64,000 bases of DNA from a virus, in IMG/VR virus record IMGVR_UViG_3300007539_000009, positions 1 through 64,000 of that record. The stretch is one strand, 5' to 3'. Positions 36,292 to 62,887 of this stretch are shown one piece after another. How positions within the stretch are numbered: position 1 is the stretch's first letter; each line of letters begins with the position of its first letter. The notes under the pieces were generated by a model. It was not told the DNA's origin, ran no database searches, and saw only the letters and a list, made by a program, of their open reading frames with translations. The translations under genes were made by a program, and so were the position numbers.

Positions 36292-36675
36292 TCAATACAG
36301 ATGGGAGTCTGACTTTGCGGCTGTATAGCCTTCTGCTACGCGCTGCTTGCCGTAGCGCTTAGCCCGACTGCGATCCTTGACTTCGTCGTGAACGTACTCT
36401 GCCTTGTGCGACGGCAGGAAGCCTTTGGCTCGCTTCTTTCTGTATCGATCGTGCTTCACCTGCACCTCACCCGGGCTGACTATACCTCTAGGGTCGTAGC
36501 CGTGCGCCACCAGCTCGCGCTCAAAGCCACGAGCCATTGTGCGGTCCTGCACCCGCTCAGAGTACGTGGTCGACTTCTTCCTACCTAAGCCAGGGAAGAT
36601 CGATCGACGCTCGGTCGTAAGCTCAGCGGCGATCTTGTAAAGCTCGTCGCAGTAAGCAGCACCGAGGTCCATCAC
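36292..36675 (-). CDS. Small basic protein with DELxKxA leader
   Basis: YCDELYKIAA, then Arg/Lys-rich. Confidence 0.75.
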   Translation of the reverse strand: MMDLGAAYCDELYKIAAELTTERRSIFPGLGRKKSTTYSERVQDRTMARGFERELVAHGYDPRGIVSPGEVQVKHDRYRKKRAKGFLPSHKAEYVHDEVKDRSRAKRYGKQRVAEGYTAAKSDSHLY

Positions 36676-37421
36676 GCGCCAGCTGAGTTGGTCGACAGCT
36701 GAATCGGGGCAATGCGGTCGAACTGCCCTGAGACGTTTTCAGTCATCACAACAGTCGAAGCATCGACCATCATGTTGTGTGTCTCAATATAGCAGTCCTC
36801 AAGGTACATAGCGCCGTACGGCCGGTCACGCGTGTCCTTGAACACTAGTGCCATACCGAACGGAACATTGAACAGCTCCGAGGTCAGGTTGGTGAAGAAG
36901 TCACGGTTCTGAACCTCAGTCGTTGATCCGCCCCAACCCGGTGCCACATCAAGCACTTTGTCTGGGAAGAGCTCGTTGTACGTCTCCAAGTAGGAGATCG
37001 GCTGCCCCTGCTCGTCAGGATCGATGAGCAACTCAGTACCGAACTCACCCAGTTTCTGGCCAGGGCCGATCGGAGCGAGCGCGTAGAGCAGACGCATCAA
37101 GCTCGGGCCGTAGAACAGGAAGCGCGAGACCGTGAAGTTCGCGAACATCCGTCCGGGCACCAAGTAGCTGCGCTTAGAGCCAATCTCGAACAGACGGCTG
37201 AGCTGCCTGTTCTGCGCGACCTGAATGCCTTGCAGCAGCCCAATCGGGATCAGCGAGTTGGTAGCGGTGAACCCCACTGCCGTGGGGTCGCCGGGTGTGA
37301 GCATGTCCAGACGAGCCGGACCGGCAAGCACCAGCGTCGACTCAGACGACACATACTCGCCGTTCTTGATCTCTGTCTGGACGTGCTCGTTAGTCCAGTT
37401 CCAGTTGAGGTAGCTCGTCAT
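36672..37421 (-). CDS. Tail tube protein (contractile tail)
   Basis: IGLLQGIQVAQNRQLSRLFEIGSKRSY.VPG tube-like motif; downstream of sheath. Confidence 0.65.
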   Translation of the reverse strand: MTSYLNWNWTNEHVQTEIKNGEYVSSESTLVLAGPARLDMLTPGDPTAVGFTATNSLIPIGLLQGIQVAQNRQLSRLFEIGSKRSYLVPGRMFANFTVSRFLFYGPSLMRLLYALAPIGPGQKLGEFGTELLIDPDEQGQPISYLETYNELFPDKVLDVAPGWGGSTTEVQNRDFFTNLTSELFNVPFGMALVFKDTRDRPYGAMYLEDCYIETHNMMVDASTVVMTENVSGQFDRIAPIQLSTNSAGA

Positions 37422-37439
37422 TGGATGATGTTGTTTCTT

Positions 37440-37721
37440 TTAGGACTTGCGCCGGCCACGAGCCGAGCGCTGCTTGTCTCGCTCTCTTTTGTGCGCAGCA
37501 GCCGCTCCGACGCCTGAGCCAGCCACAACACCTACTGGTCCTGCGAGCGCGCCGCCAGCGAGGGAGCCGGCGAGGGAGCCGGCAGCAGACCGCCAACGAC
37601 TACCGTGCTCTGCACCGATAGCAGCGCCGATCGGCCCAAGCAGCGCTCCACCAGCACCAGCTGCTCCTGCGCCTGCAATCTTGGCCAGTTCGTCAACAAA
37701 TCCGAGAACGGTTGAGGTCAT
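37440..37721 (-). CDS. Small DELxKxA-leader protein with glycine zipper and basic tail
   Basis: FVDELAKIAG; GAGAAGAGGALLG..GSLAGSLAGGALAG; ARGRRKS. Confidence 0.75.
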   Translation of the reverse strand: MTSTVLGFVDELAKIAGAGAAGAGGALLGPIGAAIGAEHGSRWRSAAGSLAGSLAGGALAGPVGVVAGSGVGAAAAHKRERDKQRSARGRRKS

Positions 37722-40981: not shown

Positions 40982-41788
40982 TCAGGGTGAGGTGCCGTAC
41001 CACTGGTCGAGGAGGTCTTCCGGAGACCCGTTGATGATGCTTGTAGGTGCTGCTTTCACGCACCCAAGGCCGTCTCCGGCCGGTTCCGGGTAGCCACTTC
41101 CCGACAAGTTGCTGATGCCTGCTGCTGTGGCGTACGTGGCAGTGGTTGACTTGACCCAGTTAAGGGTTTGGTGCACCACTAGCGTAATCGGCGCCACAAA
41201 CAGATCGTGCTGAGAGTCCGCACGCACAGACCGTGCTTCGCCGATGATCGGGCTGTCGATCTTGTGGATCCGAGACCCGTCTCGAATCTCCTTTTCATGG
41301 AAGCGGATGAAAGACCCCGCAAGCCACGCCAGGAGCTCGGCGTTCAGATCGTTGCGTGCGTAGCAGTTGATGCTGATGGGAACAGTCGTGTTGTCCTGGA
41401 ACTCAGCCTTTGACCGACCGGTCGTTCCGAAGACCCGCTGACCGGTAGAACCAACGGTGGTTCGGGGAACAGCGCCCCCGAACCCTTTGCCGTTGATCGC
41501 CAAGTCATTGAACGAGAACGTGCCCCGACTGAGGATGATCGCCGGGCGGCCATCTGTCTTGAACACTTCACTGCTGAACGAGTCAGCGATGACGAGCTTG
41601 CTGTCATCGCTGATCTCGTTGCTAGGTGTCAGAACAAGACGGAAGGGGTTCGGCCGCGCGGCGAACTCAGGGAACGTCTCTTGCTGAAAAACGTCTCGGA
41701 ACACCTCGAGCAGAATCCGCCGAGGGTAAGTCAGCGGATTGTGTACAGCGGGATCTGCCGTCCCGAAGCTCGGGGTTCCGTCAGCCAT
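40982..41788 (-). CDS. Tail terminator / tail completion protein (putative)
   Basis: RPAIILSRG, ISINCYARNDLNAELLA; lies upstream of sheath. Confidence 0.55.
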   Translation of the reverse strand: MADGTPSFGTADPAVHNPLTYPRRILLEVFRDVFQQETFPEFAARPNPFRLVLTPSNEISDDSKLVIADSFSSEVFKTDGRPAIILSRGTFSFNDLAINGKGFGGAVPRTTVGSTGQRVFGTTGRSKAEFQDNTTVPISINCYARNDLNAELLAWLAGSFIRFHEKEIRDGSRIHKIDSPIIGEARSVRADSQHDLFVAPITLVVHQTLNWVKSTTATYATAAGISNLSGSGYPEPAGDGLGCVKAAPTSIINGSPEDLLDQWYGTSP

Positions 41789-42326
41789 TCTGTCGGCGAG
41801 ACGCCAAGTACCCGATGCCGCCTGCTACGCCAAGGCCAGCAAGAACCGGATTCCGCCGGACTGCGCTCATGAGCTTGCTGCTGCCCACACCGGACCCGCC
41901 GGACCCGCCGCCGCGACCAGCGCGGACCTTATCTAGACGTGCTTGACGAGTAGCAGCGGCTGCGTCGCCTGCGGCGCGAGCAGACCCGGCGGTGCCCGGG
42001 TTTTTCATCGCGCGCTGCATGACTTCGTTGCCCCATATCGTCGGATTCTTGGCAGCGACTTTCTCAACGTACGCCTGCATGGCGTTGTCGAGCTCGGCAG
42101 CACGCTTCTCAAAGACCTCTTCGACACCTGCGAGGAATGCCGGGTGCTCGATCAGCTGGTTCAGCTGGAAATCCGTGATTGCGGCGATCTTCTCGACCTC
42201 CGGCTCGGGCTGCGGCTCCTCAACTACAGGGGCAGCCGGCTCCATCTCCGCGAAGAGCGCGGCTGTCTTCGTGTTGTGGCCCAGGATGTCACTGAGCTCA
42301 GTGATTAGCGTGTGTTCAGCGTTCAT
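41781..42326 (-). CDS. K-x-A motif protein with basic, Gly-rich C-terminus
   Basis: TKTAA, EKIAA, EKRAA, EKVAA; ends VLAGLGVAGGIGYLASRRQNG. Confidence 0.75.
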   Translation of the reverse strand: MNAEHTLITELSDILGHNTKTAALFAEMEPAAPVVEEPQPEPEVEKIAAITDFQLNQLIEHPAFLAGVEEVFEKRAAELDNAMQAYVEKVAAKNPTIWGNEVMQRAMKNPGTAGSARAAGDAAAATRQARLDKVRAGRGGGSGGSGVGSSKLMSAVRRNPVLAGLGVAGGIGYLASRRQNG

Positions 42327-42895
42327 GATTTGCGACGAAGTCTGTTGTTCAGCCGGGACTCTTCCCAGCGACTTGCCCCTCTGTGAACAGCGTAGAGTCC
42401 TGCTCCTGACGCTGCACCTTTAGAGACGCCCCGTAAGGCAGCCTGGCCGACGGCTTTACGGCCGGCACCAGACGCGGACATAGCGCCTATAGCCGCCCCA
42501 GCCAGGGCACCGGCAGAGGCAGCATTAATTCCGGGCCGGGGATTTCCGGCTTTTCGAGCTCGGTATTGAGCGTAGCCCAGCCCAGCTCCAACACCCACAG
42601 CAGCTGACGCAGGCAAGGTCCGAGCTACTGCTTGAATCTGCTTGGCGGTCCTCAGGTTTGCAGGCGTCGTGCGGGCTACCTGCTTGGCAGTGCGGGCAGC
42701 CAAAGCCGCGTGGGCAGCACCGCTAGCAACCAAGCCCACCATGCCTGCACGCCCTCTTGGCTTAGCTGACGCTTTTGCCGCCTGAAACTCTTTGACGGCC
42801 TCCCACTCAGGGTCTAGCCGTCTGGGTTTCGTGCCTGCGGCGTCTGCGAGCTTGTCTAGCTCGTCTAGGAGATCACTGACTGACTTGCTTGTCAT
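42323..42895 (-). CDS. Basic Ala/Gly-rich protein with DELxKxA leader
   Basis: LLDELDKLADA; glycine-zipper-like segments. Confidence 0.75.
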   Translation of the reverse strand: MTSKSVSDLLDELDKLADAAGTKPRRLDPEWEAVKEFQAAKASAKPRGRAGMVGLVASGAAHAALAARTAKQVARTTPANLRTAKQIQAVARTLPASAAVGVGAGLGYAQYRARKAGNPRPGINAASAGALAGAAIGAMSASGAGRKAVGQAALRGVSKGAASGAGLYAVHRGASRWEESRLNNRLRRKS

Positions 42896-45800
42896 CAGAA
42901 GTCCACACTCAGGATGCCCAGGTTAGGTGACCCCGCGCTGGGTGCGTTAGCGAAGGTAGTCTTCCCTGGCACCGCTCGGATCAGAATAGGGTTGAGTGTG
43001 CTCAGGTCCGGCACTTCAAGAGTCGTCTCGATGTCTGACGGATTGATCCGAGTCAACGAGAATGATTGGTTTACCAGCACTCTCTTGTACTCAGCTGGAG
43101 TGATACCACCAACTCGATACCAACCACCTTGGTTAGTCTCGTGGATCAAGTCGCGAGGACGCAGCAACGGATAGTTAGCCATCATTGCGCGTGTCACCGT
43201 ATCCTGCCGAGTGATGTCTCCAGGCGTGTTCTGCTTGGACTCCGGATCAATGACAGCAAGTGTGGCAATGGGCTCGTAATACCCTTCGGTGTATCCGGTG
43301 CCAAAGCACATCGGACAATCCGGGTCGCTGCTCTTTTGCATGACTGCATCCCAGCAGCTGCAGCGGTCTTCTGCGAACCGACGCTGGAACACCAGCACAG
43401 GCGATCCGCCTTGGCGGACAAGAACCTGGCTAGCGCGCATGGCGTTGATGGCAGGTCCCGTGATGTCCCCATCAAGCCGCACCGGGTCGTACGCCGGTAA
43501 CGCTGAGTTGTTGACTACCAGCTGCAGTCGGTAGAATGGCCGGCGCCACAGGTCACTGACGTTGACCGTGCTATCGAGATAGAACTGATTCAGCGCGGGT
43601 ACGAGGTCGATCTGCTCGTACGTCCCGTTTTCGGAGTACGCACGATCAATCCGGACCTGAGCAGTGTTCGGGTTCTCGTTGCCTACAGTCCACAGGTTCC
43701 ACCCAATCAACTGGGACTGGGCGTCCTGCTGGTAGACACAGATGTTGTCGAGGCGCATGCGAGTAGGGGGTGCTCCCGTAATAGATTGTACGACGGTCAG
43801 CTCGGCGGCCTGACCAGTCACGCTGTACGCCCGGTCTCCGATGAAGAAGTAGTAGAAGATGCCCCCAGATGCAGGGCGCAGCTGGAAGTTGACTGCCTGA
43901 GGGAAAGAGGGGGTGTCGGGGAACTGATTGCCCAGGCTGTCCACGCCTGTGGCATTGAAGACCACTGTGCCCGCTCCCAGGTATGCCTCTCGAGCTAGTT
44001 CGGCGCTTTGACCGGCCACCAACAAGGCCGAGGACTCTGCTATGAGGAACAAGGCTCGGGCGTAACGAAGATCGGCCACTTGTCCGTCTACGTAGTAGTT
44101 GGCTGTTTCAGCAGTCAGGCGCAGCTGCCTGCTAAGCGCCGCGTCTTGCCCGGCAGCAGTAAACAGCCCTTCGTCTGCAACCAAGATCTCGCCGACAGGG
44201 AACAGGGCGTCTTGGCCAGCCACAACGTAGGTGCCTAGCTCAGCCTCGAGCGACACCGCCTTGGCCACCGTCGCGTCCTGACCCGTCACAACAAATGTTC
44301 CGGTGTCGTTAACTACTGTCAGACGAAAAAGACCGGGCTGTCCCGTGACAACAAAGGTTGCAGTGTCAGCGACAAACACTTCTCCCAGCAAGAACAGAGC
44401 GTCCTGGCCCGAGACAGCGAAGCTAGCGGGGCTGGCTCCCAACTGGGCTGCGCGGCGGAGATCAGCACCTTGTCCTGTAAGCGTGAATGTCGCGACCTCA
44501 GCCGCAAGCGATTCGTCATTGAGGAACGCCGCCTCAAATCCAGTCAGCGTGAATGTTGCTTGCTCGGCCAGCAGCCCAAAGCCGAACAGTATCGGTTGCC
44601 CTGCTACTGTGTACGTTGACTGATCAGCAGCAAGCAGCAGCCCTCGTGACAGCGCCGCGTCTTGACCAGTGAGCGCAAACGTCGTTTGCTCTGCGGTGAA
44701 GAGCAGTGCTCGTAGGAAGCCTGCGTCTTGCCCAGTAAGGGCAAAGGACCCGACCTCGGCTATGAGCGATACACCAACAGCCAGCGCTGCGTCCTGGCCC
44801 GTGACGACGTAGGTGCCTAGGTCAGCTGTCAGCCTGCGGACCACCGACAACGTGGCGTCTTGGCCTGATAGCGCAAAGACACCTACTTCGGCAATGAACA
44901 AGTCGTCGAACAGCAGGCCGGCGTCCTGGCCGGTGAACGTGTAGCTGGCCTGATCGGCCGTAAGCAGCGCTGCGCGCGTAAGTACAGCAGCCTGACCTTC
45001 AACCGCAAAGGCCGCCTGCTCCGCAACTATGCGCAGTGCGAGGTCAAAAGCTGTGTCTTGACCAGTAAGCGTGTAGCTCTGCTGCTCAGCTACAAGTTCA
45101 AAACTAGCAGCAAGCCCAGCGTCTTGGCCGCTGAGTGTGAACGTAGCCTGCTCTGCAGTCAGCGACAGGCCGAGGATGAAGTCTGTGTCTTGGCCGGCCA
45201 GGCTGTAAGACGCCTGAGCTGCGTCTATGACCCGTGCTGCTGCTAAGTCGGCTTGTTGCCCGCTAACAGTGAACGACGCGTCATTGCTGACAAGAACTGC
45301 GTCACGTGTCAGCGCAGCGTCTTGTCCAGCGAGCACAAACGTTGCTTGATCAGCAGCAAGCGTCACTCCCCGGTTGAGCGCCGCATCTTGCCCGGTCAGC
45401 GCGTAGCTCTGCTGCTGGGCGAGCAGCGCACGTTCCGCAGTCAGCGCTGCATCCTGGCCGGACAGCGTGAAACTTCCACTGTCAGCGACAACGGAAAGTC
45501 CTCTAGCAAAGGCAAGGTCTTGGCCGACTAGGGAGAACGTTCCCTCGTCCGCTAGCAGGGTCAGCCCACGATTGAGCGCAGCGTCTTGGCCAGTAAGTGT
45601 GTACGTCTGCTGATCAGCAGTAAGTGTCAGTCCTCTAGCAAACGCTGTGTCCTGGCCAGTAAGTGTGTACGTCTGCTGATCAGCAGTAAGCGTAAAAGCG
45701 CCTACACCGGGAGGCGAGTACGTGAACCCGCTGAAGTCAATGACTTGGTAGCGGATCTCCGAGTCTTGTCCGGACCGGATGCGCCGAAATTGCACTGCCG

Positions 45801-46752
45801 TTGGCGACAGTGTTTCGTAGAGCCACAGTGGGCGCGTAAACGCAGTGCCTGTGCCGTTACAGGAGTTCCACCCGGTAACTACCGACTGGTTGGTGTCGTA
45901 GCTACTGACGGTGTCGGTTACTGTGAAGTCACCAGAGGCGGCCGTGACAGTATCGCCGTGTTGTACCACGAGTCCCGTAGGCGACGGGAACTCGATGATC
46001 TGCCACGCAATGTTGCTCGAGTAGCTGGTTGTCTGGTCGTACCGCTCAACGAAAATATCACTGGCGTTGAGAGTCGTTGCCAACGAGCACTGCTCGAGAC
46101 CGTTGCTATCGTGGTCAAACGTAGCGATCAAGAACGACCGAGATGTGTCGACCGTCACACCGGTACTGATCGTGGTGCCGGCGGCCAGGTTACCGCTGAC
46201 GTTGTCATACCCGTGAGTGACCGTGACGCCAGTAGGAGAAGCCCAGGTGACGGCTTCCCACTGAATGAAGTTTCGGTACGTACCGGACGCAGTGGCTCTA
46301 ACCGTAGTCGCGCGACTAGGGCTATCTAGGTGGACTGATACGAAGCCGTCAAACGCTACCGAGCTGTTAGCGGTGTTGTTGACCCACGTAGTCGCGGTCA
46401 AGAACGTGCGGTCAACATCCAGAGGGCTGGAGAAGTTGATTGCGCCTGTTGATGATCCTGTAGCGATAAGCGACAGACCCCTCCGAACAAAGAACTCCTC
46501 TGCATCGCAGGTTACGGCGTAGACACCTACATTGCCCAGAGCAGTGGTCGCAGGTCTTCGAGAGCACTCGATCCCGCTAGGGCTAATCAGCTCAGTACCA
46601 AACGCCCAAGTGTCTGGCCCCTCGTTAGCCGTAGAGGAGTTGCCAGAAGCTCGAGTGATCAAGAACGTTCTCTCTACATCGACAGGACTGATGTGCAGGA
46701 TCGTGCCATCAGTTACCGACGCAGAGCTAACGTACTGAACTGTAATAGACAT
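42895..46752 (-). CDS. Neck/head-closure protein fused to N-terminal fibre-like repeats
   Basis: C-terminal CSCWD..DCPMCFGTGYTEGYYEP..NYPLLRPRDLI head-closure-like domain; N-terminal four ~85-aa units plus about 26 GQD repeats. Confidence 0.75.
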   Translation of the reverse strand: MSITVQYVSSASVTDGTILHISPVDVERTFLITRASGNSSTANEGPDTWAFGTELISPSGIECSRRPATTALGNVGVYAVTCDAEEFFVRRGLSLIATGSSTGAINFSSPLDVDRTFLTATTWVNNTANSSVAFDGFVSVHLDSPSRATTVRATASGTYRNFIQWEAVTWASPTGVTVTHGYDNVSGNLAAGTTISTGVTVDTSRSFLIATFDHDSNGLEQCSLATTLNASDIFVERYDQTTSYSSNIAWQIIEFPSPTGLVVQHGDTVTAASGDFTVTDTVSSYDTNQSVVTGWNSCNGTGTAFTRPLWLYETLSPTAVQFRRIRSGQDSEIRYQVIDFSGFTYSPPGVGAFTLTADQQTYTLTGQDTAFARGLTLTADQQTYTLTGQDAALNRGLTLLADEGTFSLVGQDLAFARGLSVVADSGSFTLSGQDAALTAERALLAQQQSYALTGQDAALNRGVTLAADQATFVLAGQDAALTRDAVLVSNDASFTVSGQQADLAAARVIDAAQASYSLAGQDTDFILGLSLTAEQATFTLSGQDAGLAASFELVAEQQSYTLTGQDTAFDLALRIVAEQAAFAVEGQAAVLTRAALLTADQASYTFTGQDAGLLFDDLFIAEVGVFALSGQDATLSVVRRLTADLGTYVVTGQDAALAVGVSLIAEVGSFALTGQDAGFLRALLFTAEQTTFALTGQDAALSRGLLLAADQSTYTVAGQPILFGFGLLAEQATFTLTGFEAAFLNDESLAAEVATFTLTGQGADLRRAAQLGASPASFAVSGQDALFLLGEVFVADTATFVVTGQPGLFRLTVVNDTGTFVVTGQDATVAKAVSLEAELGTYVVAGQDALFPVGEILVADEGLFTAAGQDAALSRQLRLTAETANYYVDGQVADLRYARALFLIAESSALLVAGQSAELAREAYLGAGTVVFNATGVDSLGNQFPDTPSFPQAVNFQLRPASGGIFYYFFIGDRAYSVTGQAAELTVVQSITGAPPTRMRLDNICVYQQDAQSQLIGWNLWTVGNENPNTAQVRIDRAYSENGTYEQIDLVPALNQFYLDSTVNVSDLWRRPFYRLQLVVNNSALPAYDPVRLDGDITGPAINAMRASQVLVRQGGSPVLVFQRRFAEDRCSCWDAVMQKSSDPDCPMCFGTGYTEGYYEPIATLAVIDPESKQNTPGDITRQDTVTRAMMANYPLLRPRDLIHETNQGGWYRVGGITPAEYKRVLVNQSFSLTRINPSDIETTLEVPDLSTLNPILIRAVPGKTTFANAPSAGSPNLGILSVDF
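43990..45700 (-). repeat. About 26 tandem ~22-aa LxAxxxx(F/Y)xLxGQDAxL repeats
   Basis: Counted in translation; exact 38-nt duplication at 45587-45624 and 45653-45690 (66-nt period). Confidence 0.9.
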
Positions 46753-51275: not shown

Positions 51276-51488
51276 TCAGGTGGCTTTGGAGAGGAGGTCG
51301 ATTGCAAGCGCGAGCTTGGCTACGCCGGTACGGCTCGACTCGGTCGAAGCCGCCTGCTTTGCCAAAGTCTCGTCGATCTCGCGGGTGAGCTCCTCTTCTT
51401 GTTCCGCTGAGGAAGGCTCAGCCTCGATAGGGGCTTTGCCTGCCTCAACGGCAACCTTGAGAAGCTCGTCTAGGGAAGAGAACTGCAT
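51276..51488 (-). CDS. Small prohead protein with DELLKxA leader
   Basis: SLDELLKVAV, AKQAAS. Confidence 0.6.
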   Translation of the reverse strand: MQFSSLDELLKVAVEAGKAPIEAEPSSAEQEEELTREIDETLAKQAASTESSRTGVAKLALAIDLLSKAT

Positions 51489-52003: not shown

Positions 52004-52039
52004 TGGTTCAGTGCGCTTGAGGTTGCGGCGGACAGTAGA

Positions 52040-52454: not shown

Positions 52455-53828
52455 TCAGATTGCGGTTGCCAGGAATGGCATCCAGTTGGGAACCGAGCTC
52501 GATGCTCGGGGTACAGTGAAAGCTGCGTCTACGCCGTTTCGCTGCAACGCGAAGCGGATGATCGGGTCTCTCTCCTGTAGCGCAGCAAACTTCTCCAAGT
52601 CTATCTGACGCAGCAGGTTACGGTACCGATCGTGCCCGTAGGCAGACGCAGTTTTTACTAGGGCGAAATGAGAGAGCTGGCTCGCGGTGCGCCTGGTGAA
52701 GTACGGATCGAACATCGACCGCTTCTCCAGATGCGGCTCCAAAGCCATTACCAGTGTGCGGTTAGGAGAAGCCAGCGGCAACGGATCTGAGATTTGAGTC
52801 TCTCCAGCCACTTTCTCGTACTCGTCATTCGTCAGATAGATCCCTAACGACACGCAAGCGCGCAGGGCTTCCTGTGCTCCAGCGTTGGCCAGTTTCTCGA
52901 GTACACCGGCCGGGAGCGGCTTAATGTATGTGAGGTCCTGGTGGGCTGACTTTTTCACGAAGTCGACCAGGCGGGGGTCGGTATCCGACTTCTTGGCAGG
53001 AACTGACTTAGCCACAGGCTCCATCGGCATGTCCTTCCGTATCTCGGACTTCTTGGACAGCGAAGCGCTGGCTACTTTGCGGATCGACCACGCGCTGCGA
53101 TCGGCCGGTGTGAGCACCCGGGAGATATCGAAGAAGCGCGGGAAATCGTTGTACGCGTAAACACGGCGACCATCAGGGAGCATCCTCCCCAGCCAGTTTT
53201 TTAGGTGGTCGCAGTAGTCGGCGCGCTGCTTAGCCGGGTTGCCGCAGATGCTGCAACGGTCGTAAGGCAGCTTAGCGCCCATTGACCACGGGACCGGTGT
53301 ACCGTCGTCAATCATCTTGACGACGTCAGGCGCGTGCTTTGTGCGGACGAACACAATCAGCTCGACCCGCTTCATCTTGTCGTTGTATGCGCTGGCGATC
53401 ACATCGCCGATCGACTTCGCAGGGTCTTTGTTCTCGTGGAACTTGTAGACGTGCGCGTAACGCGGGAACGTGTGCTCGCCGTACGCTTCTTTGGGCGGGA
53501 TGACGATGTTCGGGTACTTCTTCCGAACGCGATCATTGATGTAGCGTGCGATGTCGCTAGGCGGATCCATAGCCTTGAGGCTCCACTCCGGGAATGCGTC
53601 CCCGTTGCGGTTATGGCCCCAAGTCTCGCACGCACCTAACGCGTTCAACAGGACGTAGCGCCCGTCTTGGCGCGGCTTCAGCTGCTCAGCTACACGCAGT
53701 AGCGACTCAGGTGTTGAGTCAGCAGATGCGATCTTGTCGAACGTCGAGCCGTGCACAAGGCTGTAGTCAGGGCCCCAATCGTGGTAGCCGCCTACATCGA
53801 ACGTCTTGCCTGAGGTTGCGAAGCTCAC
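52455..53828 (-). CDS. Prohead maturation protease (HK97/assemblin-like fold) with zinc-finger insert
   Basis: FHENKD..IGDV (His), WSMG (Ser), CSICGN..CDH, FFDISRVLTPAD (EvSxVxxPA-like). Confidence 0.7.
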   Translation of the reverse strand: MSFATSGKTFDVGGYHDWGPDYSLVHGSTFDKIASADSTPESLLRVAEQLKPRQDGRYVLLNALGACETWGHNRNGDAFPEWSLKAMDPPSDIARYINDRVRKKYPNIVIPPKEAYGEHTFPRYAHVYKFHENKDPAKSIGDVIASAYNDKMKRVELIVFVRTKHAPDVVKMIDDGTPVPWSMGAKLPYDRCSICGNPAKQRADYCDHLKNWLGRMLPDGRRVYAYNDFPRFFDISRVLTPADRSAWSIRKVASASLSKKSEIRKDMPMEPVAKSVPAKKSDTDPRLVDFVKKSAHQDLTYIKPLPAGVLEKLANAGAQEALRACVSLGIYLTNDEYEKVAGETQISDPLPLASPNRTLVMALEPHLEKRSMFDPYFTRRTASQLSHFALVKTASAYGHDRYRNLLRQIDLEKFAALQERDPIIRFALQRNGVDAAFTVPRASSSVPNWMPFLATAI

Positions 53829-54160
53829 TTTTTGTTGCGCTCTTTCATCCTACGCCTGTGCGAACTGTAAGCGCGCACAATGTCCTCGTTAGCACGTAGT
53901 AGTGACCCAATAGCCTTCCCTCGGCTCGACCCGAGCTTGCTGAGCTCGTCAGCGAACCCGCAGAGCATTGCGTACTTAGCCGGCCCTTCTACGCCTCGAT
54001 AGTTGCGGTGCTTGCGAGAGTGCTTGCGCTGGTAGCTTTCTCGATTCTCGAGATGACCGGTTTGCGGGCCTGCTCGACGAGTATCTGATTCGTCTTGCTG
54101 ACGATAGACGGGAGGAGCACCGCCCGGGTCGGTGATGGCGGTGTACTGATACTCGGCCAT
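53825..54160 (-). CDS. Small basic protein with internal DELSKLG motif
   Basis: GFADELSKLGS; Arg/Lys-rich. Confidence 0.65.
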   Translation of the reverse strand: MAEYQYTAITDPGGAPPVYRQQDESDTRRAGPQTGHLENRESYQRKHSRKHRNYRGVEGPAKYAMLCGFADELSKLGSSRGKAIGSLLRANEDIVRAYSSHRRRMKERNKK

Positions 54161-54870
54161 CAGTTCTTCTTGCGGCCCGCGAAGCCCTCCATCGCCTTGC
54201 TCGACAGGCTGGCCACTGACTTACCGAGCTCAGGCAACCTCGCGGTGCTCTCATCACGGTAGGACCCGTAATCACGTTGCAGACTGAGCAGGTCCTTGAC
54301 GCGCGTAGTTGTCAGTGCGCGGGGACCGAAGGTCTGCATATCCCGCATCACGTTGCCCGCCAGCAGCGGATCCGCCGCTACATCAGGAGCGAAGTTCTTG
54401 ATGATTCGGAAGTAATGGTGGGCGTTGGGATCGTCGCGCAGCGTTGGGTTCTCGTGGACGATCTGCTTGACGGACTCGTTAATCTGCCGCCCACGCTGGC
54501 GCTTACGGATGCTGGCGCTGATAGCAGGCGTTGCTGCCAGAGCAAGGCCCGCACCCGCACCTACAAACTTGATCGCGTTCGCAATGTTCGTCGGGTTCCT
54601 GAGCGCCGGCAGCAGCGTGCTAGCTGCGCCAGTCTTCTCAAGCCGGTCGCAGTCGTCTGCCAACTCCTGGCAGAAGCCTAGGAAGCTCTCTGCGTAATCC
54701 GGATCCTCGATCTGCTGCGCAGCTTCTTTGACCAGGTCGACAACAGCCTCACTGTCATCTTCGCTGATCGCGCGCGCCAGCTTTACGCCGAAGTCTGACA
54801 CATCTGCCCGCTGATCGCGAGAGAGGTGCGTGCCGTAGAGGCAGGCAAACTCAGTGAATACTCCGCTCAT
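54160..54870 (-). CDS. Prohead/virion protein with central hydrophobic segment
   Basis: LEKTGAAS followed by FVGAGAGLALAA and a basic region. Confidence 0.7.
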   Translation of the reverse strand: MSGVFTEFACLYGTHLSRDQRADVSDFGVKLARAISEDDSEAVVDLVKEAAQQIEDPDYAESFLGFCQELADDCDRLEKTGAASTLLPALRNPTNIANAIKFVGAGAGLALAATPAISASIRKRQRGRQINESVKQIVHENPTLRDDPNAHHYFRIIKNFAPDVAADPLLAGNVMRDMQTFGPRALTTTRVKDLLSLQRDYGSYRDESTARLPELGKSVASLSSKAMEGFAGRKKN

Positions 54871-56033
54871 TTGCTCTTATGCGCCGCCGGCGTTGCTTTG
54901 CTTTGGTGGGTACCGGGGATGTAGTCACGCGTCAGCTGACCGAACCCCCGTGTGATTGCTTTGTCTGCACCGGAGCTCAGTACGTCTTTTAGTGACGTAG
55001 GCTTGTAGCCCTTCATCACAGAATCGACACCGCTTTGAGATGCAGCTGTCTTTGTTATTGCCGCGTCGATTACAGCTGCAAACCCATCGGTTGTGGCTGT
55101 GCGAGCATCTAGCGACTCTGCGAACTTCTGAACTTGCGGCTCAGCGGTTTCGTTGTCCATGATCACTTGCTGGATGTCACGAACAGTGCTGCTCAGGTTG
55201 TCGACCTCGGTTTTCCAATCGTTGAGGTTCTCCGAGAGGTCCATCTTGCGCTTGACCTCGGTCAGCGTGCCGTAGAGCGCCGCCCGACCGTTGATGACTG
55301 TCACGTCCGGCCCACCAAGACGACCGCCTGAGCGATCGAAGTCGTCGACGGCGGCAAGCTCAGTGGCGTCAGCCAGGGCGACGTTAGTGGGGTGCGCATG
55401 CTTACGCATCTCGTTCTGAACCGCCTGGAAGATCGGGGTCCAGCGGCCGGGGCTGTCCGGGGTCAAGCACTGAGCGTATTTGTGCATGTCGGCCAGCCGC
55501 CCACGCGCTGAGTAGACGTACTCAGTGGCGAGCTTCATCAGCTCAGTCATGTCCTCGCGGAAGTCCTGAGCTAGACCGATGGAGCGCGCATTGATCATAC
55601 GCCCGTAGTTGTCAGCGCGAGATGCGACCTTCTCCAGGTGGATCAGGGCTGCGCGCTTCTCGGCCTCGTACAGCTCCTTAGACTTCGGATCAATCCGGTC
55701 CAGGTCGCGGTCGAGGGTCGAGCCCCGCCCAGTGATGAACGAAGAGGCGACCTTACGGATCTCCTGTACGGACACCCCTTTGTCCTGCGGGCCGAGCAGC
55801 TCGAGGACGGCATCTGTAGATGCCAGGTCAAACTCCTGGCCGCCCTTGGCTGCCACCTTGCGGAGCCCGTCACTGGTGGCGTGATTGGCGGCTGTCACCA
55901 GCGAGCCGATCTCCAAGCGCGTCAGACCCTTGTCCTGGGCGATCTTGGCGATTGACTCATTGAGGCTAGCGCCGTCACGGACGTAGGTCCGCGCAGCGTC
56001 TTGAGCCAGCAACTGAATCTCGATGTTTTTCAT
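54867..56033 (-). CDS. Prohead core-like protein with K-x-A motifs
   Basis: AKIAQ, RKVAA, RKVAS, EKVAS, TKTAAS. Confidence 0.75.
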   Translation of the reverse strand: MKNIEIQLLAQDAARTYVRDGASLNESIAKIAQDKGLTRLEIGSLVTAANHATSDGLRKVAAKGGQEFDLASTDAVLELLGPQDKGVSVQEIRKVASSFITGRGSTLDRDLDRIDPKSKELYEAEKRAALIHLEKVASRADNYGRMINARSIGLAQDFREDMTELMKLATEYVYSARGRLADMHKYAQCLTPDSPGRWTPIFQAVQNEMRKHAHPTNVALADATELAAVDDFDRSGGRLGGPDVTVINGRAALYGTLTEVKRKMDLSENLNDWKTEVDNLSSTVRDIQQVIMDNETAEPQVQKFAESLDARTATTDGFAAVIDAAITKTAASQSGVDSVMKGYKPTSLKDVLSSGADKAITRGFGQLTRDYIPGTHQSKATPAAHKSK

Positions 56034-56094: not shown

Positions 56095-57873
56095 TTAGGG
56101 CAGGTTGGGCAGCAGGGTGGTTGTGAGCTCGCCGTAGTACTGCATACAAGCCGCCTCAGCGTACGCCAGGCTGTGGAATGCGTCGTCCGGGACCTCGTGG
56201 TCGTATTTGTAGGTGTTCCGCCGCTCGTCGAACTCGATGTAGATACCGGTGAAATCAGACACAAACGGCTTCAGGTCCATGAAGTTGAAGAAGCGCGTCT
56301 TGCCAGTTCTGATCTTGTCGACAATCAGCTCGATCATCTGGTTGCGGTCGATCGAGTAGCGCTCAGCGTCAGGGCGCCACTTAGCCAGGAGGCCCTGCTG
56401 GACGTACTGCATCTGCATCAGCAGCCGCTCAGCGCCGTACCAGTTCCACCCCAACTCGTCGACCAGTCGGGCGTTCTGAGCCGCACCAAAGCCCCAGTCA
56501 GCTCCGCACCAGCGCACGTTGCACTGGGTCATGATCTCGTTGAGCGCTCCTACCTGCTTAGAGAGGTTCACTTCTGTACCAGTGAACTTCTTCATGTAGA
56601 GAACGTGGAACACGCCTTGTTTGTCACGGTGACCAATTGTGATCACGGTGTACGACGGGTTGTCTCCCTCTCCTGAGCCGTAGTCAATGCCGGCAAATAC
56701 CGGGACGCCGCGATTGGCTATTTCGCGGATAGCACGAAACTGGCTCATCTCCCGCTCTTCGCACGCATTCCGCATGACGCTTTCGGTCAGCACTAGCTGA
56801 CCCTCGTCATACGGCAAGCCCAGCACCTCATTGAAGTACCGACGCGCGCTGTACTCTTCGCGCTTGGCCTTGACCTTGGCGTGGCTTTGGAACGGTACGA
56901 TCAGCTGCGGGATGCGGAAGCCCCAGCGATGGTCTAAGTAGCTCGGCTGGCTGGGAACCCACTTGCCGTTTCGCGGTTCGATCTCTTTTCGACAGCGCGT
57001 GCAGCGGTAAGCATCGTCCGCAACGATCTCGTCATCTGGATAGTTCCAGTGATTACATGCGCTGCACTTGATCAGCCACTCGAACTGGCTGGTTCTAGTC
57101 CAAGTTCGGCTGATTAGGTTGGATGTTGTCTTCGGTGTTCCAGCGTACAGCCGGAACTTGCGATGGTCCTTGGCGTGGGATTGGCACTCCTCGAGAACCT
57201 CAATCGCGTCGGAGACAATGTCCTGAATCTCGTCTACCAACAGGTGCTCGCAGGTGATGCCTCGAGCGTTGTCAGCGGACAGGTAGCACGACCGGAAGTT
57301 GAAAAACGCACCGTTGGTGAACTCACGGGACGAGACTTGCCACAGCGTCTTGCTGGGCTGCACCCACAGGCCCATGTCCGGTGAGTCCTCACACATTGCG
57401 CGGAATCGCTGCGTAGAGAACACGGACACCTGATCCCATCGAGGCGCGATGTATAGCGTTTTGTACGCTTTGTACATCGCAGCCAACGAGATGGACTTCG
57501 CTGCCTGGGACGTGGACTTCTCAACCTGTCGTCCAGCCAGCATCAGCACGTTACGACACCCCATTGGGTACTGCTTGCGCAGGTCATAGACGCCGTACAG
57601 GTACTCTCTGCCTGTGAAGTCAAACGGCTCGCGGTCGACAGTCAAGAAGTTCTTGACGAAGCCAGAGACAGTAGAAACCGCCTTAGGTCCGCCCAGGTCT
57701 TTCTTGACTCGGTGAGCCGCGACGTGCTGGCTCTCCTGAGCAATCTGCTCTGCCTGCTGGTTGTACTTCGACCAATCGATCGCCTCGAGGTCGTTGTTGG
57801 CCAGCGTGACCGCCACGTCACGCAGCAGCTGTGCATGTGTAGTGGGCGGAGCAGTTCCTAGAAGTTCAGCCAA
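56095..57873 (-). CDS. terL: Terminase large subunit
   Basis: Walker A GRQVEKST, Walker B LLVDEIQD, YAGTPK, C..C zinc sites, nuclease AGIDYG and DDAFHS. Confidence 0.88.
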   Translation of the reverse strand: MAELLGTAPPTTHAQLLRDVAVTLANNDLEAIDWSKYNQQAEQIAQESQHVAAHRVKKDLGGPKAVSTVSGFVKNFLTVDREPFDFTGREYLYGVYDLRKQYPMGCRNVLMLAGRQVEKSTSQAAKSISLAAMYKAYKTLYIAPRWDQVSVFSTQRFRAMCEDSPDMGLWVQPSKTLWQVSSREFTNGAFFNFRSCYLSADNARGITCEHLLVDEIQDIVSDAIEVLEECQSHAKDHRKFRLYAGTPKTTSNLISRTWTRTSQFEWLIKCSACNHWNYPDDEIVADDAYRCTRCRKEIEPRNGKWVPSQPSYLDHRWGFRIPQLIVPFQSHAKVKAKREEYSARRYFNEVLGLPYDEGQLVLTESVMRNACEEREMSQFRAIREIANRGVPVFAGIDYGSGEGDNPSYTVITIGHRDKQGVFHVLYMKKFTGTEVNLSKQVGALNEIMTQCNVRWCGADWGFGAAQNARLVDELGWNWYGAERLLMQMQYVQQGLLAKWRPDAERYSIDRNQMIELIVDKIRTGKTRFFNFMDLKPFVSDFTGIYIEFDERRNTYKYDHEVPDDAFHSLAYAEAACMQYYGELTTTLLPNLP

Positions 57874-58942: not shown

Positions 58943-58945
58943 GGC

Positions 58946-60628
58946 TTACCCGCTGTAAGTAATGTTCTTCAGTTCCGTCAGGTCGCGGATAACAGCGTCT
59001 AGTGCAAACAGCGCTGTACGGATCGGAGACGAGTCAACCTCAAGGCCAACGCGTGCTGCAATCAGTAACTGAGCAACGGCGCGACGAGCGTCTCGCATCG
59101 TGTCCAGCGACTCCACGAACTTCAGGACGTTTTGCTCGTTCAAGAAGTTGAGGCTGAGCACTGCGTCTACTGTGCGTCGGCTCAGCTCTTCTGCGCTTTC
59201 AGCACACTTGATGAGCTGCTGGCGCTCAGCTTGGTAGATAGCCTGCTCAACCAGAGCTGCCGTTTTCCAGAGAGCTGCCTTCTCTTCGTTCGAGAGAACC
59301 GGCATGCCTTCGATCGGCTTAACCTCCGGAGCGGGCAGCTCTACGTAGCTGACTACGCCATCAGCCATCAGCCGGCTAGCGGCCTCTTTTGCGAAGGCAT
59401 CTTCATACGTCCGTCCGAGGTAGTCAGCCAACTCACGCAGTCTGACTGTCTCACCGTCAGGCATGCGGGCGTAGCCGCCTACCTTTGTGATCGTTTGGGC
59501 TGCCGGCACGTCGCTGGTTGTGGGCTGGTAGTCCACAGGCTGTGCCTTGTCTGCGAGCTTCAAGAAGATCCAGTCGTCGTTCAGCAGGATGGTGTCCACA
59601 TCCCCTTCAACACGCTGGAACGGTTGCTCGCTAGCAGTCTTGCGGAACTTGATTGACTTATCGCCACGCAGTTCAGCGATGTAGTCATTGCCGGCGGAAC
59701 CGCGAATGTTCACGGGCTCGGTGACGATGGTGTCCGCCGATTTGACGAACACAAAGACGCCGGTACCGCTCCAGTCGTCCTCCTCAAGCTCCGGCACGCC
59801 GTCGTACGCAGAGCCCCACAGGGGACGATCAGTAAACGCGGCAGTTTTGTCGAGGCCCACAAACGCCTGGACACCTTCACGCAGGTCGTCCAAGTCGAAG
59901 TAGTAGACGTTGTGCGCTACGAAGCCGGCTCGCTCACCATCAGCGGTAGCGACCTTGTATATGCCCGGTTCCTGGATCAGCTGAGCAGGGTTGACCTCTA
60001 CATCGACTACGGCTGCTGCTGCTCGCGTGTCTTCAACGACAGGCTCAGTGGCGTTTGCTGCGTACTTGCGCAGCACGTCCTCGAAAGCGCGGCTGGTCGT
60101 CAGACCCCACTCCAGCTGGTTCGGCTTGAGGTACGCCATAGCCTGCTTGACTTGATCGTCAGCGTAGCTAAGCGATGCGTAAGCGTACTTGCCGTCAAAC
60201 GGAGGCAACGTGAGATACGCAATCGATGCGTCGGACGACTCACCTGAACGGCCCGGCTTCACCGGCTCCCCGATCGGGTCGTCACGCTGCAGCGCTTCCT
60301 CCAGCGCAGGACGTGTGAGCGGCAGCACGTCCTCTTTGCTAATGAACACGTCTAGCGGTGCTAGGCGGCAATCAGAGATCACGACAGGGATGATTACCTT
60401 GTCGTCAATGTTGATCGCACCGACACCGTGCCCACTATCAGAGTCCGTCTTGTTCATGCGGACGTTGATGTGGTAGTCGGCCAAGTACGGCTGCGTTTGG
60501 TGCAGCACGTCCATGACCTCCTCAGGCCAGTTCTTTGAGTCACGTGACAGCCGTGAGGATGCCGACTTCTCGAAGTCGCCGAAGCTCGGGGCCTCAGCAA
60601 ACAGCGCTTGTCCCCGGAGCTTAGGCAT
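58946..60628 (-). CDS. Large prohead-associated protein with about 10 K-x-A sites
   Basis: EKSAS, YKVAT, DKTAA, VKSAD, RKTAS, AKEAAS, WKTAA, IKCAE. Confidence 0.8.
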   Translation of the reverse strand: MPKLRGQALFAEAPSFGDFEKSASSRLSRDSKNWPEEVMDVLHQTQPYLADYHINVRMNKTDSDSGHGVGAINIDDKVIIPVVISDCRLAPLDVFISKEDVLPLTRPALEEALQRDDPIGEPVKPGRSGESSDASIAYLTLPPFDGKYAYASLSYADDQVKQAMAYLKPNQLEWGLTTSRAFEDVLRKYAANATEPVVEDTRAAAAVVDVEVNPAQLIQEPGIYKVATADGERAGFVAHNVYYFDLDDLREGVQAFVGLDKTAAFTDRPLWGSAYDGVPELEEDDWSGTGVFVFVKSADTIVTEPVNIRGSAGNDYIAELRGDKSIKFRKTASEQPFQRVEGDVDTILLNDDWIFLKLADKAQPVDYQPTTSDVPAAQTITKVGGYARMPDGETVRLRELADYLGRTYEDAFAKEAASRLMADGVVSYVELPAPEVKPIEGMPVLSNEEKAALWKTAALVEQAIYQAERQQLIKCAESAEELSRRTVDAVLSLNFLNEQNVLKFVESLDTMRDARRAVAQLLIAARVGLEVDSSPIRTALFALDAVIRDLTELKNITYSG

Positions 60629-60980
60629 TGCGTGTCACCTGCAGTACACCAATGTGCTGCGGATCGGTTCCTGGTGAGAACTTGTCAGAATTGACAGAAA
60701 CGAAGATGGGCGCGTAGCGACGGTATGCATCCAACGTGATTGCTTGGGCGGACGTACCAGTGGCGTTGAAGCCTCCGGTCTCTCCGGGCATCAACGTAGC
60801 CCACGTACCGCCGGCGCCGGCTACCTGGATACGCAGGATCACAGGAATGCGACCTTTGTTGGTGATGCTGTAGCTAGCGTTGGTTGTAACGCCTATCACA
60901 CCAAGCTGCGTCGTCTTGACGCTTGAGGTGCTGTCGAACGCGGGTTCAACGCGGACCCAGTACTGTGTGAGATTGGTCAT
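60621..60980 (-). CDS. Small beta-rich virion protein (putative)
   Basis: 119 aa within the structural operon. Confidence 0.6.
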   Translation of the reverse strand: MTNLTQYWVRVEPAFDSTSSVKTTQLGVIGVTTNASYSITNKGRIPVILRIQVAGAGGTWATLMPGETGGFNATGTSAQAITLDAYRRYAPIFVSVNSDKFSPGTDPQHIGVLQVTRNA

Positions 60981-60998
60981 AGCTGCTTAGACCCATTA

Positions 60999-62435
60999 TC
61001 AGGTCATCGGGACACTTGTGGGACCGCTCGGACCTTCGGGCGTCGGGTGAATGTGTGCGTTGTAGCTGGTGCGGATCTCGACCAGGTCCCCCAAGGCGTC
61101 CGCCACCAAGCCGGCAGCTGTGACATTTCCTTGGGCGGTCACATTCCCTTGAATGTTCATGTTGCCCTGCAGCTCGACGTCGCCAGTCACGTCTACTCCA
61201 TTCTGGGAAACTACAACTGTCCTGTTGACAGTGACTTCCAGCCCTTCGTCAGTCAACCGGAAGAACTGAGACCCGCGCTCTACCCGTGTGCCTTGGGAGT
61301 CAATGACCAGCTGATGCGGGGTGCCTGACCCCGTCTCCTGGATCTTGAGCTCGCCGGAGTCCGAGTTGAACGTGATGTCGAACTTGTCACCAACCTTGAA
61401 GTGGACGCCGGCTGAAACAGGCCCGCCAACAGCATCCTGCACCCCTCCAGGGGTGTTGGGGTTCGAAAAGTCCGTGCTGGGGTGCGGCGCATTCTCTGCG
61501 GCCAACTCCCCCATTTCCAGGCTCAGCAGCTGCTCTCCAGCCTGCTGCTGCATCCGGTAGGTGTTGGTCTCGTTGTCGATCTCCTCGACGCGATGGCCAC
61601 CCCACAGCCGGCGGCGCCCTCGAGCAACGATCGGGAGGCTGCCCAGCCCCGCTACATCATCGACAATCACCAGAGGCACGAATCCGGTGAACTCCCGCAG
61701 GTCTACGTCTTGCGCAAGACTCTGAGCCCGAAGCAGGTTCAAGTGCGTCACCCGCCCCTGTGTCGCCCCGGAGGCAGTGACCGTGGTGTGGGTGTCCGTC
61801 CACCCTGCAGACTCAAACGACCAGTCCCGACACGACGCTTGGATGCGGTTTCCCTGGGAGTGCATCAGGAAGTAGGTGCGGCGGGACTTCGGTTGGAGCA
61901 AGATGTCTCCGAAGTCGTAGACCCGCACTAACGCACGCTCCTGGTTGAGCCGCGCACGGTTCTGCATGATCGCGTCACCGGGGAAGATCGCCGACTCAGC
62001 GATGCCGCGCTGGTCTATTCGTCGGAAGCTGATCTGCTGACCTGTGCGGTTGAGGAGGTCACCTTCGAGGTTGGTTGCAGAGTCAGCAAGCTGCTCTTCG
62101 ATGGTGTTGGCCTCTGTGCCTGTATTGGCAGAGATGACATCAAGCTCACCGATCACTACCCAATCAGCACCTACGAAGTGAGCAGTGATTACGCGCGTAC
62201 CTTGCGAGTACGGCCGTTCTGCGCCTTGCCGCATAGCGGAGCAGAGACGATCCCCGATACGGTCGATCGTGACGTTGTAAACCCGTGTCTTCGGGTTGTA
62301 GCCACGAATCACACCAGCAAACATCTGGTGCGACCGGTTCACCCCTCGCGTTTGGTAGGCGTACAGCTGCTGACCCGCTGTGCTCAACACAGCAGGCTTA
62401 TTGCCTCCAAGTCCTGAAGGGTAGCCCGCGTCCAT
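60999..62435 (-). CDS. Baseplate central spike (gp5/gpV-like)
   Basis: N-terminal OB-like domain, VTGDVELQGNMNIQGNVTAQG beta-helix repeats, C-terminal NAHIHP (HxH metal site). Confidence 0.75.
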   Translation of the reverse strand: MDAGYPSGLGGNKPAVLSTAGQQLYAYQTRGVNRSHQMFAGVIRGYNPKTRVYNVTIDRIGDRLCSAMRQGAERPYSQGTRVITAHFVGADWVVIGELDVISANTGTEANTIEEQLADSATNLEGDLLNRTGQQISFRRIDQRGIAESAIFPGDAIMQNRARLNQERALVRVYDFGDILLQPKSRRTYFLMHSQGNRIQASCRDWSFESAGWTDTHTTVTASGATQGRVTHLNLLRAQSLAQDVDLREFTGFVPLVIVDDVAGLGSLPIVARGRRRLWGGHRVEEIDNETNTYRMQQQAGEQLLSLEMGELAAENAPHPSTDFSNPNTPGGVQDAVGGPVSAGVHFKVGDKFDITFNSDSGELKIQETGSGTPHQLVIDSQGTRVERGSQFFRLTDEGLEVTVNRTVVVSQNGVDVTGDVELQGNMNIQGNVTAQGNVTAAGLVADALGDLVEIRTSYNAHIHPTPEGPSGPTSVPMT

Positions 62436-62887
62436 CAGATCTGCTTGACGCTCTCCTTCAGCGACTCAATGATCTTCTCGCGAATCTCAGGACGCCGCGT
62501 CTCGATGATGCGAATCAGGCGCTGCACCCAGTCTTTGAGTGAGATCCTCAAGCCCTTTTGTTGAGGCAGGGCAATCGTCTTCTGCGCAAAGCGGCGAACG
62601 ATTTCGCGCTCCTCACCAGTGGCCGGAGCACCTTTGTAGTCGCGGCGGAACTGCTGTGCTTCCAAGTCTTGCCGACGGCCTGCGCGGTCGATCTCAGTCG
62701 TTGTGTACTGATGCTCAGCAATCTTGGCGAGCTCAGACACGTAGCTCTCCATAGCTCCTCGTTTCACAAATCCTCCTGGTATAGTTCGGCTCCCGGGCAG
62801 CACCGCACGATTGAATCCAGTTCCGGCCGTCAACTTGACGTTTGCCAGCTTTTCAAGTTGAGCCAAGAGTGCTTCGTATGCGTTCAT
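62435..62887 (-). CDS. Small protein with two ELxKxA motifs
   Basis: AQLEKLANV, YVSELAKIAEH. Confidence 0.7.
   Translation of the reverse strand: MNAYEALLAQLEKLANVKLTAGTGFNRAVLPGSRTIPGGFVKRGAMESYVSELAKIAEHQYTTTEIDRAGRRQDLEAQQFRRDYKGAPATGEEREIVRRFAQKTIALPQQKGLRISLKDWVQRLIRIIETRRPEIREKIIESLKESVKQI

Follow-up and report, generated by a model that had tools for sequence, protein, structure and literature searches.

Why should a series of otherwise unrelated small proteins in the head region of one phage carry the same short peptide? The question is raised by IMG/VR record IMGVR_UViG_3300007539_000009, a single contig of 183,184 bp (G+C content, ~59%) whose first 64 kb, a stretch of 64,000 nucleotides, is referred to here as the window. 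A sequence-only reading of positions 36292 to 62887 had noted a family of small basic proteins with an amphipathic leader, DELxKxA, and had likened this leader to the capsid-targeting sequence (CTS) of phage T4. We found that DELxKxA is not a label specific to these proteins, because the same core occurs throughout the head module, including in the major capsid protein, the protease, and the scaffold-like proteins. From this distribution, the best reading of the core motif is a general processing code of the head module. Specifically, we consider it probable that the motif is the recognition site of the phage's own prohead protease and that the leaders are cleavable propeptides of fast-evolving head-internal proteins.

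The phage falls in a separate clade that is largely uncultivated and whose virion module includes a fused RNA polymerase. Its nearest cultured relatives, Salmonella phage Arash and Vibrio phages D69, D181, and D148, are distant, with ~35-40% identity in portions of the protease and capsid protein, and a scan of viral contigs with the capsid protein as the query found no relative. Metagenomic homologs of the protease number more than 300, many of them on contigs of 100-196 kb. As relatives for comparison, we used seven syntenic metagenomic loci (L002-L008), along with L013, a relative at 80% protease identity. According to a codon-model gene call, all genes from 36.3 to 128 kb are on the minus strand, which is the strand of every window feature described below. 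Profile searches of positions 36292-62887 named just three genes: the large terminase (56095-57873), a head maturation protease (52455-53828), and the major capsid protein (49041-50321). The sequence-only reading had given the neighboring genes the names tube, sheath, terminator, neck, adaptor, and spike, but searches of these genes against Pfam and PHROGs returned no such match, leaving the names without profile support. The gene order terminase, 388-amino-acid (aa) protein, 236-aa protein, 111-aa protein, protease, scaffold-like genes, and capsid protein is found in the window and in all seven relatives.

Six proteins of the window have an N-terminal leader with its lysine at residues 11-15. 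Site scores were obtained with a position matrix that, to guard against circularity, was trained on sites from L002-L008 only and then applied to this genome. The leader proteins are a 127-aa basic protein (36292-36675; isoelectric point [pI], 9.7) that begins with YCDELYKIAA (K14; leader at nucleotides ~36628-36675; 12.7 bits); a 93-aa protein (37440-37721; pI 11.6) in which FVDELAKIAG (K14; 15.2 bits) is followed by two Gly/Ala-rich hydrophobic segments and a basic tail; a 190-aa basic ORFan (42323-42895; pI 11.5) with LLDELDKLAD (K15; 14.6 bits); a 178-aa basic protein (47242-47778; pI 10.8) with FIDELTKLAA (K13; 15.7 bits); a 70-aa acidic protein (51276-51488; pI 4.4) with SLDELLKVAV (K11) and a weak ortholog in L005; and a 150-aa basic protein (62435-62887; pI 10.0) with the tandem leader-like sites AQLEKLAN (K13; 11.0 bits) and YVSELAKIAE (K55; 11.3 bits), whose C-terminal domain is conserved in L002 and L005. 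In a further 111-aa basic protein (53825-54160), the leader-like sequence FADELSKLG (K75; 13.0 bits) is internal and precedes a 36-residue basic tail. Two strong N-terminal leaders lie outside the window and far from the head module, at genome positions 74051-74683 (YVDGLAKLAN; K16) and 138263-138601 (YADELEKLGV; K13); the product of the latter is basic and Gly rich and adjoins a 1200-aa protein.

Most of what had been said about these proteins from the sequence alone stood up to analysis. All of the quoted leader strings are present in minus-strand open reading frames (ORFs), at the gene starts to which they had been assigned. The annotated frame was the best of six in 12/12 small ORFs that we scored, including all seven listed motif genes, with three Gly/Ala/Arg-rich ORFs scoring low. 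The ORFs are also otherwise unrelated, as claimed: BLASTP of the leaderless proteins returned nothing at E < 0.001 except one pair that aligned over the motif itself. As with a T4-type CTS, a short N-terminal peptide is common to proteins of the virion region that share little else. Synonymous codons vary between copies, and the leader is therefore conserved as protein rather than as a DNA repeat. The description of the leader as amphipathic was borne out by helical hydrophobic moments with a median at the ~89th percentile (range, 69th to 99th). Two other descriptions held in part. Six of the seven proteins are basic (pI 9.7-11.6), but the 70-aa protein is acidic and is part of the conserved scaffold-like cluster rather than basic cargo. 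Likewise, the Gly/Ala-rich hydrophobic stretches behind the term "Gly/Ala zippers" are clear in the products of 37440-37721 and 42323-42895, less so in that of 47242-47778, and not clear in the others. The first of these has weak Pfam matches, both under the cutoff, to Gly-zipper_Omp (16.1 bits; cutoff, 25) and DUF456. The C-terminal half of the second resembles a glycine-zipper 2TM domain, with a structural match in the Atlas that is a lead only (TM, 0.41/0.65). Both proteins are at most candidate members of the glycine-zipper two-helix membrane proteins (Pfam Gly-zipper_YMGG and Gly-zipper_Omp).

Across the genome, of which all frames and all called proteins were scanned, the core motif takes the form hydrophobic-x-K-[ILVT]-[AG], of which DELxKxA is the strongest version. 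The strict pattern [DES][EL]LxK[ILVT][AG] occurs 8 times in the genome's proteins compared to 0.19 ± 0.45 times in 300 per-protein shuffles (maximum, 2), and the loose core occurs 58 times compared to 20.7 ± 4.3 times in shuffles. With the relatives-trained matrix and a threshold of at least 12 bits, we detected 27 sites in the 8,718 residues of the head module (36.3-62.9 kb) versus 8 in the other 48,363 residues (odds ratio = 18.8, P = 5.9e-16); shuffled sequences gave 0.5 sites in the module and 2.5 elsewhere. The sequence-only reading was to be given up if the motif proved equally common in nonstructural genes, and this is not what we observed. Five of the 8 outside matches fall in three proteins (73032-74051, 84769-85998, and 139277-139555), which look like further head-internal proteins. 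Within the same operon, no match of at least 9 bits was found in the terminases or in the 1285-, 478-, 268-, and 249-aa proteins.

The motif is specific for lysine and alanine. A profile search of the PDB with the protease alignment matched only designed coiled coils with L-K-K-I-A heptads, which led us to run a control for helical periodicity. Lysines inside the motif make up 12.7% of all lysines in the module versus 2.2% elsewhere. When other residues were swapped into the lysine position, the values were 3.3% for Glu and 2.6% for Asp, and neither these two residues nor Arg was enriched. At position +2, Ala was dominant and was the only enriched residue. A heptad artifact was rejected by this control.

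The enzyme that would read such a code is encoded at 52455-53828, between the terminase and major capsid protein genes and adjoining the scaffold-like genes, which is the position expected of a prohead protease. Its 457-aa product matches the PHROG for head maturation protease, and tblastn connected it with the annotated prohead proteases of Rhodococcus phage E3 and Gordonia phage Pupper, as well as with gp19 of phage G. In an AlphaFold2 (AF2) model built from 22 homologs (predicted local distance difference test [pLDDT], 77), a protease domain at residues ~40-257 is fused to a C-terminal helical domain. Residues 47-254 of the model aligned with the varicella-zoster virus (VZV) protease over 114 residues (Z 9.4; root mean square deviation [rmsd], 2.7) and with T4 gp21 over 130 residues (Z 9.0; rmsd, 3.2), and the next row had a Z of 6.7 (VIA-align). 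Foldseek of the model against the PDB gave no significant match, and no Pfam match to Peptidase_S78 was obtained. Judged from the model, the product has the assemblin-type fold expected of a prohead protease (assemblin, gp21, and HK97 gp4). H131 and S182, ~50 residues apart, are invariant in the 22 homologs and are candidates for the catalytic His and Ser.

The protease itself contains the motif six times. Copies flank the catalytic domain at K32 and K251 and recur in the C-terminal half. K32, A34, K251, and A253 are invariant in the 22 homologs (37-80% identity), at both edges of the domain. The homologs also contain inserts that cannot be aligned, each of which still has x-x-K-[VFIY]-A. Together, the invariant flanking copies and the copies in inserts form the pattern expected of putative self-processing sites. 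The order of catalytic domain, disordered linker, and helical C-terminal domain is the layout of a protease-scaffold fusion. Two further features of the protein are worth recording. A Cys-x2-Cys ... Cys-x-His cluster at residues 192-208 (C192, C195, C206, and H208), inside the protease domain, is invariant in 22/22 homologs and looks like a small zinc-binding insert, which to our knowledge would be unusual among prohead proteases. The last 10 residues of the precursor include a conserved W-[LM]-P-F tail (P451 and F452 invariant), which, by comparison with herpesvirus scaffold proteins, could be a capsid-binding tail that carries the enzyme into the prohead.

The presumed substrates include the capsid and scaffold-like proteins. 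In the major capsid protein (49041-50321; PHROG major head protein), the N-terminal site GDALEK-TAE (K28) scores 16.9 bits, the third best in the module, and is kept in 7/7 relatives (Lys 24-28). The family has 659 detected homologs; among 140 representatives, 90 have Lys at the site column, in 87 of which the second residue after it is Ala, Gly, or Ser. Two acidic scaffold-like proteins of 166 and 135 aa (51503-52447) contain 2 and 3 high-scoring sites (13.3-17.3 bits), which are kept by the orthologs of relatives. A conserved 388-aa protein (54867-56033) has eight motif copies spaced ~20-40 residues apart over its first half, and its orthologs carry 4-9 copies. Compared to L013, 8/8 of these sites are retained at 73% identity, with substitutions inside the sites staying within the motif. 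The 388-aa protein is a candidate core or scaffold protein that would be cut into small pieces.

Three other proteins of the module add to this picture. A 236-aa protein that is conserved in 7/7 loci (54160-54870) has a site at K79 (15.1 bits) followed by a hydrophobic Gly/Ala segment. A 181-aa protein (41781-42326) has internal sites at K46 (14.1 bits) and K89 (11.5 bits) and a Gly-rich C-terminal segment; four related loci conserve its N-terminal half, in proteins that begin with M-x-x-K-T-A. A conserved 560-aa virion-module protein (58946-60628) has an N-terminal FEK-SAS in which K21 and A23 are invariant in the alignment. A portal role for this last protein is unsupported: its Arash ortholog is gp218, which is listed as structural and is not annotated as the portal (gp204 in Arash), and the AF2 model is poor (pLDDT, 56). 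For the capsid, 560-aa, scaffold-like, and 388-aa proteins, Arash and D69 have the same motif placement as the metagenomic relatives. Overall, site positions are conserved across phages at 30-45% identity.

Turnover is high among the proteins that bear leaders. The proteins encoded at 42323, 47242, and 53825 have no homologs in the seven syntenic loci, although the flanking core genes are conserved in 7/7. When the 190-aa protein (42323-42895) was searched against 5.8 billion proteins, the query alone was returned. For the protein encoded at 47242-47778, only the leader (residues 1-33) matches a protein of a relative, and the 111-aa protein (53825) is conserved with L013 up to its internal motif and diverged after it. 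Relatives L002-L008 have leader-bearing small proteins of their own in the same slots. Equivalents also exist in the cultured phages. Arash gp224, which is listed among the particle proteins, has a leader-like N terminus and a Gly-rich segment, and the 51-aa gp212 is a further equivalent; in D69, the equivalents are a highly basic 151-aa protein and a 59-aa glycine-zipper protein. A related 194-kb phage encodes a 135-aa protein (L004:17988-18395) with an N-terminal M-L-K-F-A leader and a domain resembling inorganic pyrophosphatase (25.6 bits; cutoff, 23.5), a candidate, judging from its sequence, for an enzyme as cargo.

These observations suggest the following course of events. During head assembly, the protease would cut itself free at the sites on either side of its catalytic domain, trim ~28 residues from the major capsid protein, and cut the acidic scaffold-like proteins and the core-like 388-aa protein into short pieces. 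DELxKxA would be the best-fitting form of the site, placed 11-17 residues from the N terminus of small, mostly basic, partly glycine-zipper proteins. After incorporation into the prohead, these proteins would be stripped of the leader, just as the internal proteins of T4 are of their CTS. The scissile bond would follow the lysine. Cleavage there is probable because the spacing hydrophobic-x-charged matches the rules of T4, phiKZ, and HK97. Cleavage after the Ala two residues later, as in herpesviruses, is a less likely alternative.

HK97 offers a precedent for a lysine rule. Its gp4 protease cleaves gp5 after Lys103, thereby detaching the delta domain, and the cut follows the hydrophobic-x-Lys pattern (F-N-K): full-length gp5 reads TFNK-SLGS, and the mature chains begin with SLGS (PDB sequences). 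Unlike the phage studied here, HK97 has no family of leader-tagged internal proteins, and here the primed side is strongly constrained ([ILVT]-Ala). Our search of the literature on Lys-specific prohead proteases found nothing for the clade of this phage.

For the leaders, the closest parallel is T4, in which N-terminal propeptides of 10-20 residues address diverse internal proteins to the scaffolding core and are then removed by gp21 (PMC3012670, PMC5694885). The anatomy fits the CTS analogy drawn in the sequence-only reading: leaders of 11-17 residues are found on unrelated, lineage-specific small proteins and end in a motif that also occurs at expected protease sites. As with the T4 proteins IPI, IPII, IPIII, and Alt, the short propeptide is the sole shared part of diverse, fast-evolving, and often basic proteins. 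In T4, as in the phiKZ-like phages, one short motif governs both the loss of propeptides by the capsid, portal, protease, and internal proteins and the breakdown of the scaffold; in this phage, the leader ends in a putative cutting motif that is also found on the capsid protein, scaffold-like proteins, and protease. The two systems differ in sequence. The leaders have no similarity to the T4 CTS, their motif is hydrophobic-x-Lys followed by [ILVT]-Ala rather than the Leu/Ile-x-Glu of T4, and the protease resembles gp21 in fold only. By analogy, the leader system appears to work like a CTS but outside the T4 family, Glu not being enriched at the lysine position.

Two other groups of viruses share parts of this design. 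Phages related to phiKZ (phiKZ, 201phi2-1, and SPN3US) process their proteins at Ser/Ala/Gly-x-Glu (PMC5694885, PMC10052503). In them, a single short motif directs the processing of the capsid protein, portal, and protease along with that of many proteins that are internal to the head or ejected; in some substrates (SPN3US gp47), a transmembrane segment comes immediately after the propeptide. However, most of these propeptides exceed 100 residues, and their rule is based on Glu, whereas the putative propeptides described here are short and follow a Lys rule. The herpesvirus assemblin precursor resembles the protease described here in having an N-terminal assemblin-fold protease (Z 9.4 to VZV), a linker with an invariant site, a helical C-terminal domain, and a conserved tail; its sites differ, being Val/Leu-x-Ala followed by Ser. 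Given these precedents, we most likely see a Lys-based variant of a known principle, a targeting propeptide combined with a protease code as in T4 and the phiKZ-like phages, that is extended here rather than a new mechanism.

The virion operon also encodes a single 2388-aa fused beta-beta' RNA polymerase (62884 to genome position 70050), which overlaps its neighbors by a few bases. Orthologs in relatives have 1,900-2,900 aa, some with Pfam matches to inteins or homing endonucleases. We rejected the N-terminal ELLAKSE of the polymerase as a leader, since the motif is not kept in the orthologs. With no conserved leader on the RNA polymerase, the tag is not a universal route into the head.

Several points weigh against cleavable, head-addressing leaders. 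If the RNA polymerase is packaged, as its Arash counterparts seem to be, then another route of entry into the head exists. The Arash particle proteome lists 116 of 252 proteins, among them the protease and the scaffold-like proteins, without peptide positions, and so shows neither processing nor true virion location. Moreover, a cut after Lys is invisible to tryptic mass spectrometry. Since the substrates of proteases are bound in extended form and the leader is a helix of moderate amphipathicity, its role could be that of a docking helix, either in place of a cleavage site or in addition to one. The additional constraint on the leaders (Asp at -4, Glu at -3, and the residues at -6/-5) is not needed for a bare cleavage site. 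Finally, the 560-aa protein has several loose matches in its interior and possibly is folded and uncut.

The evidence from sequence speaks for cleavage rather than demonstrating targeting. Regarding what the leader proteins do, DNA binding and ejection, both mentioned in the sequence-only reading, are guesses. Their basic composition suggests contact with DNA. Their resemblance to glycine zippers points to insertion into a membrane once they have been ejected, which has been proposed for SPN3US gp47; this weighs at least as much as DNA binding. In its fullest version, the hypothesis would be that the 11-17-residue leader is portable, suffices to load a protein into the capsid, and is read in concert with a head protease specific for Lys. 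The phages using it would form a widespread clade with genomes of 180-195 kb, nearly all of them uncultivated apart from Arash and Vibrio phage D69, and their cargo would be rapidly replaced ORFans, many of them basic or membrane inserters of the glycine-zipper type, that are delivered along with the DNA. We put this forward tentatively, as a possibility that we are inclined to doubt.

A narrower explanation is that the motif is a cleavage site and nothing else. Under this hypothesis, the leaders are propeptides with no addressing role. The proteins would enter through their mature parts, for example, by basic tails that bind the core or DNA, and the propeptide would mask a membrane-active or DNA-binding N terminus until the protein is inside. 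This would account for the four core positions being the same in N-terminal and internal sites, for proteins that carry the motif right after the start Met with few residues to remove, for the glycine-zipper segments that directly follow the leader in the protein encoded at 37440, and for an RNA polymerase without a leader. It does not account for what the N-terminal leaders have beyond the internal sites, namely the conserved Asp at -4, Glu at -3, and aromatic or aliphatic residue at -6/-5, nor for their narrow length, with Lys at residues 10-18 when the leaders of relatives are included. In addition, the equivalent peptide of T4 is sufficient for targeting (PMC3012670, PMC5694885). We regard a purely proteolytic role of the leaders as unlikely.

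An uncleaved leader would be a different matter. As an amphipathic helix, it could bind a partner in the head (the capsid interior, the scaffold, or the tail of the protease) and stay on the mature protein. The range of hydrophobic moments and the location of the hydrophobic residues (-6/-5, -2, and +1/+2) on one face of the helix favor docking of this kind. But docking leaves unexplained why copies are invariant at both edges of the protease domain, why they persist in inserts that cannot be aligned, why one protein contains eight of them, and why Lys and Ala are strictly needed when any charged or small residue might do. We judge a permanent docking helix to be improbable. Even less credible is a modification directed at the lysine, in which this residue, the only one that is fully required, would accept a covalent link such as an isopeptide cross-link. 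Against it are the spread of the N-terminal capsid motif over a family of 659 detected homologs and the presence of the motif in scaffold-like proteins, which are normally discarded. Lastly, the possibility of a chance or compositional artifact in helical proteins rich in Ala, Leu, and Lys/Glu, which the coiled-coil matches raise because heptad design can yield the pattern, was tested and rejected given that Glu, Asp, and Arg are not enriched at the lysine position, that only Ala is enriched at +2, and that site positions are conserved between distant phages.

If the leaders are indeed cleavable propeptides of head-internal proteins, one short motif would mark the internal and probably injected proteins of a large uncharacterized phage clade, including ORFans that are beyond the reach of homology searches. 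Were the leader in addition a sufficient loading tag, the set of injected proteins of such phages could be inferred directly from sequence, and the leader could provide a protein-packaging tag that is orthogonal to the one from T4. The propeptide reading also predicts that the head protease is specific for Lys and has strong preferences on the primed side. It would also follow that standard tryptic proteomics misses this kind of processing and that the published particle proteomes of these phages would have missed it.

Other features of the genome touch on the same proteins. At genome positions 84769-85998 (L011:14727-15956), a very basic protein of 409 aa (pI 10.7) carries the leader-like site GFEDELQKIA (residues 278-287) ahead of a DUF6321 domain (E = 8e-20), which in PHROGs forms the C-terminal part of many phage proteins, from 99 to 928 aa long. 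Short basic tails end four proteins of the head module, those encoded at 37440-37721 (RRKS), 42323-42895 (RRKS), 53825-54160 (RNKK), and 54160-54870 (RKKN); there was no significant enrichment of basic C-terminal tails in the module compared to the rest of the genome (4/28 versus 8/147, P = 0.10). The 1285-aa protein (42895-46752) contains several dozen tandem units of ~22 residues (consensus, ~L-T-G-Q-D-A-A-L) followed by a C-terminal domain, and in all seven relatives this domain stands on its own as a protein of ~290 aa.

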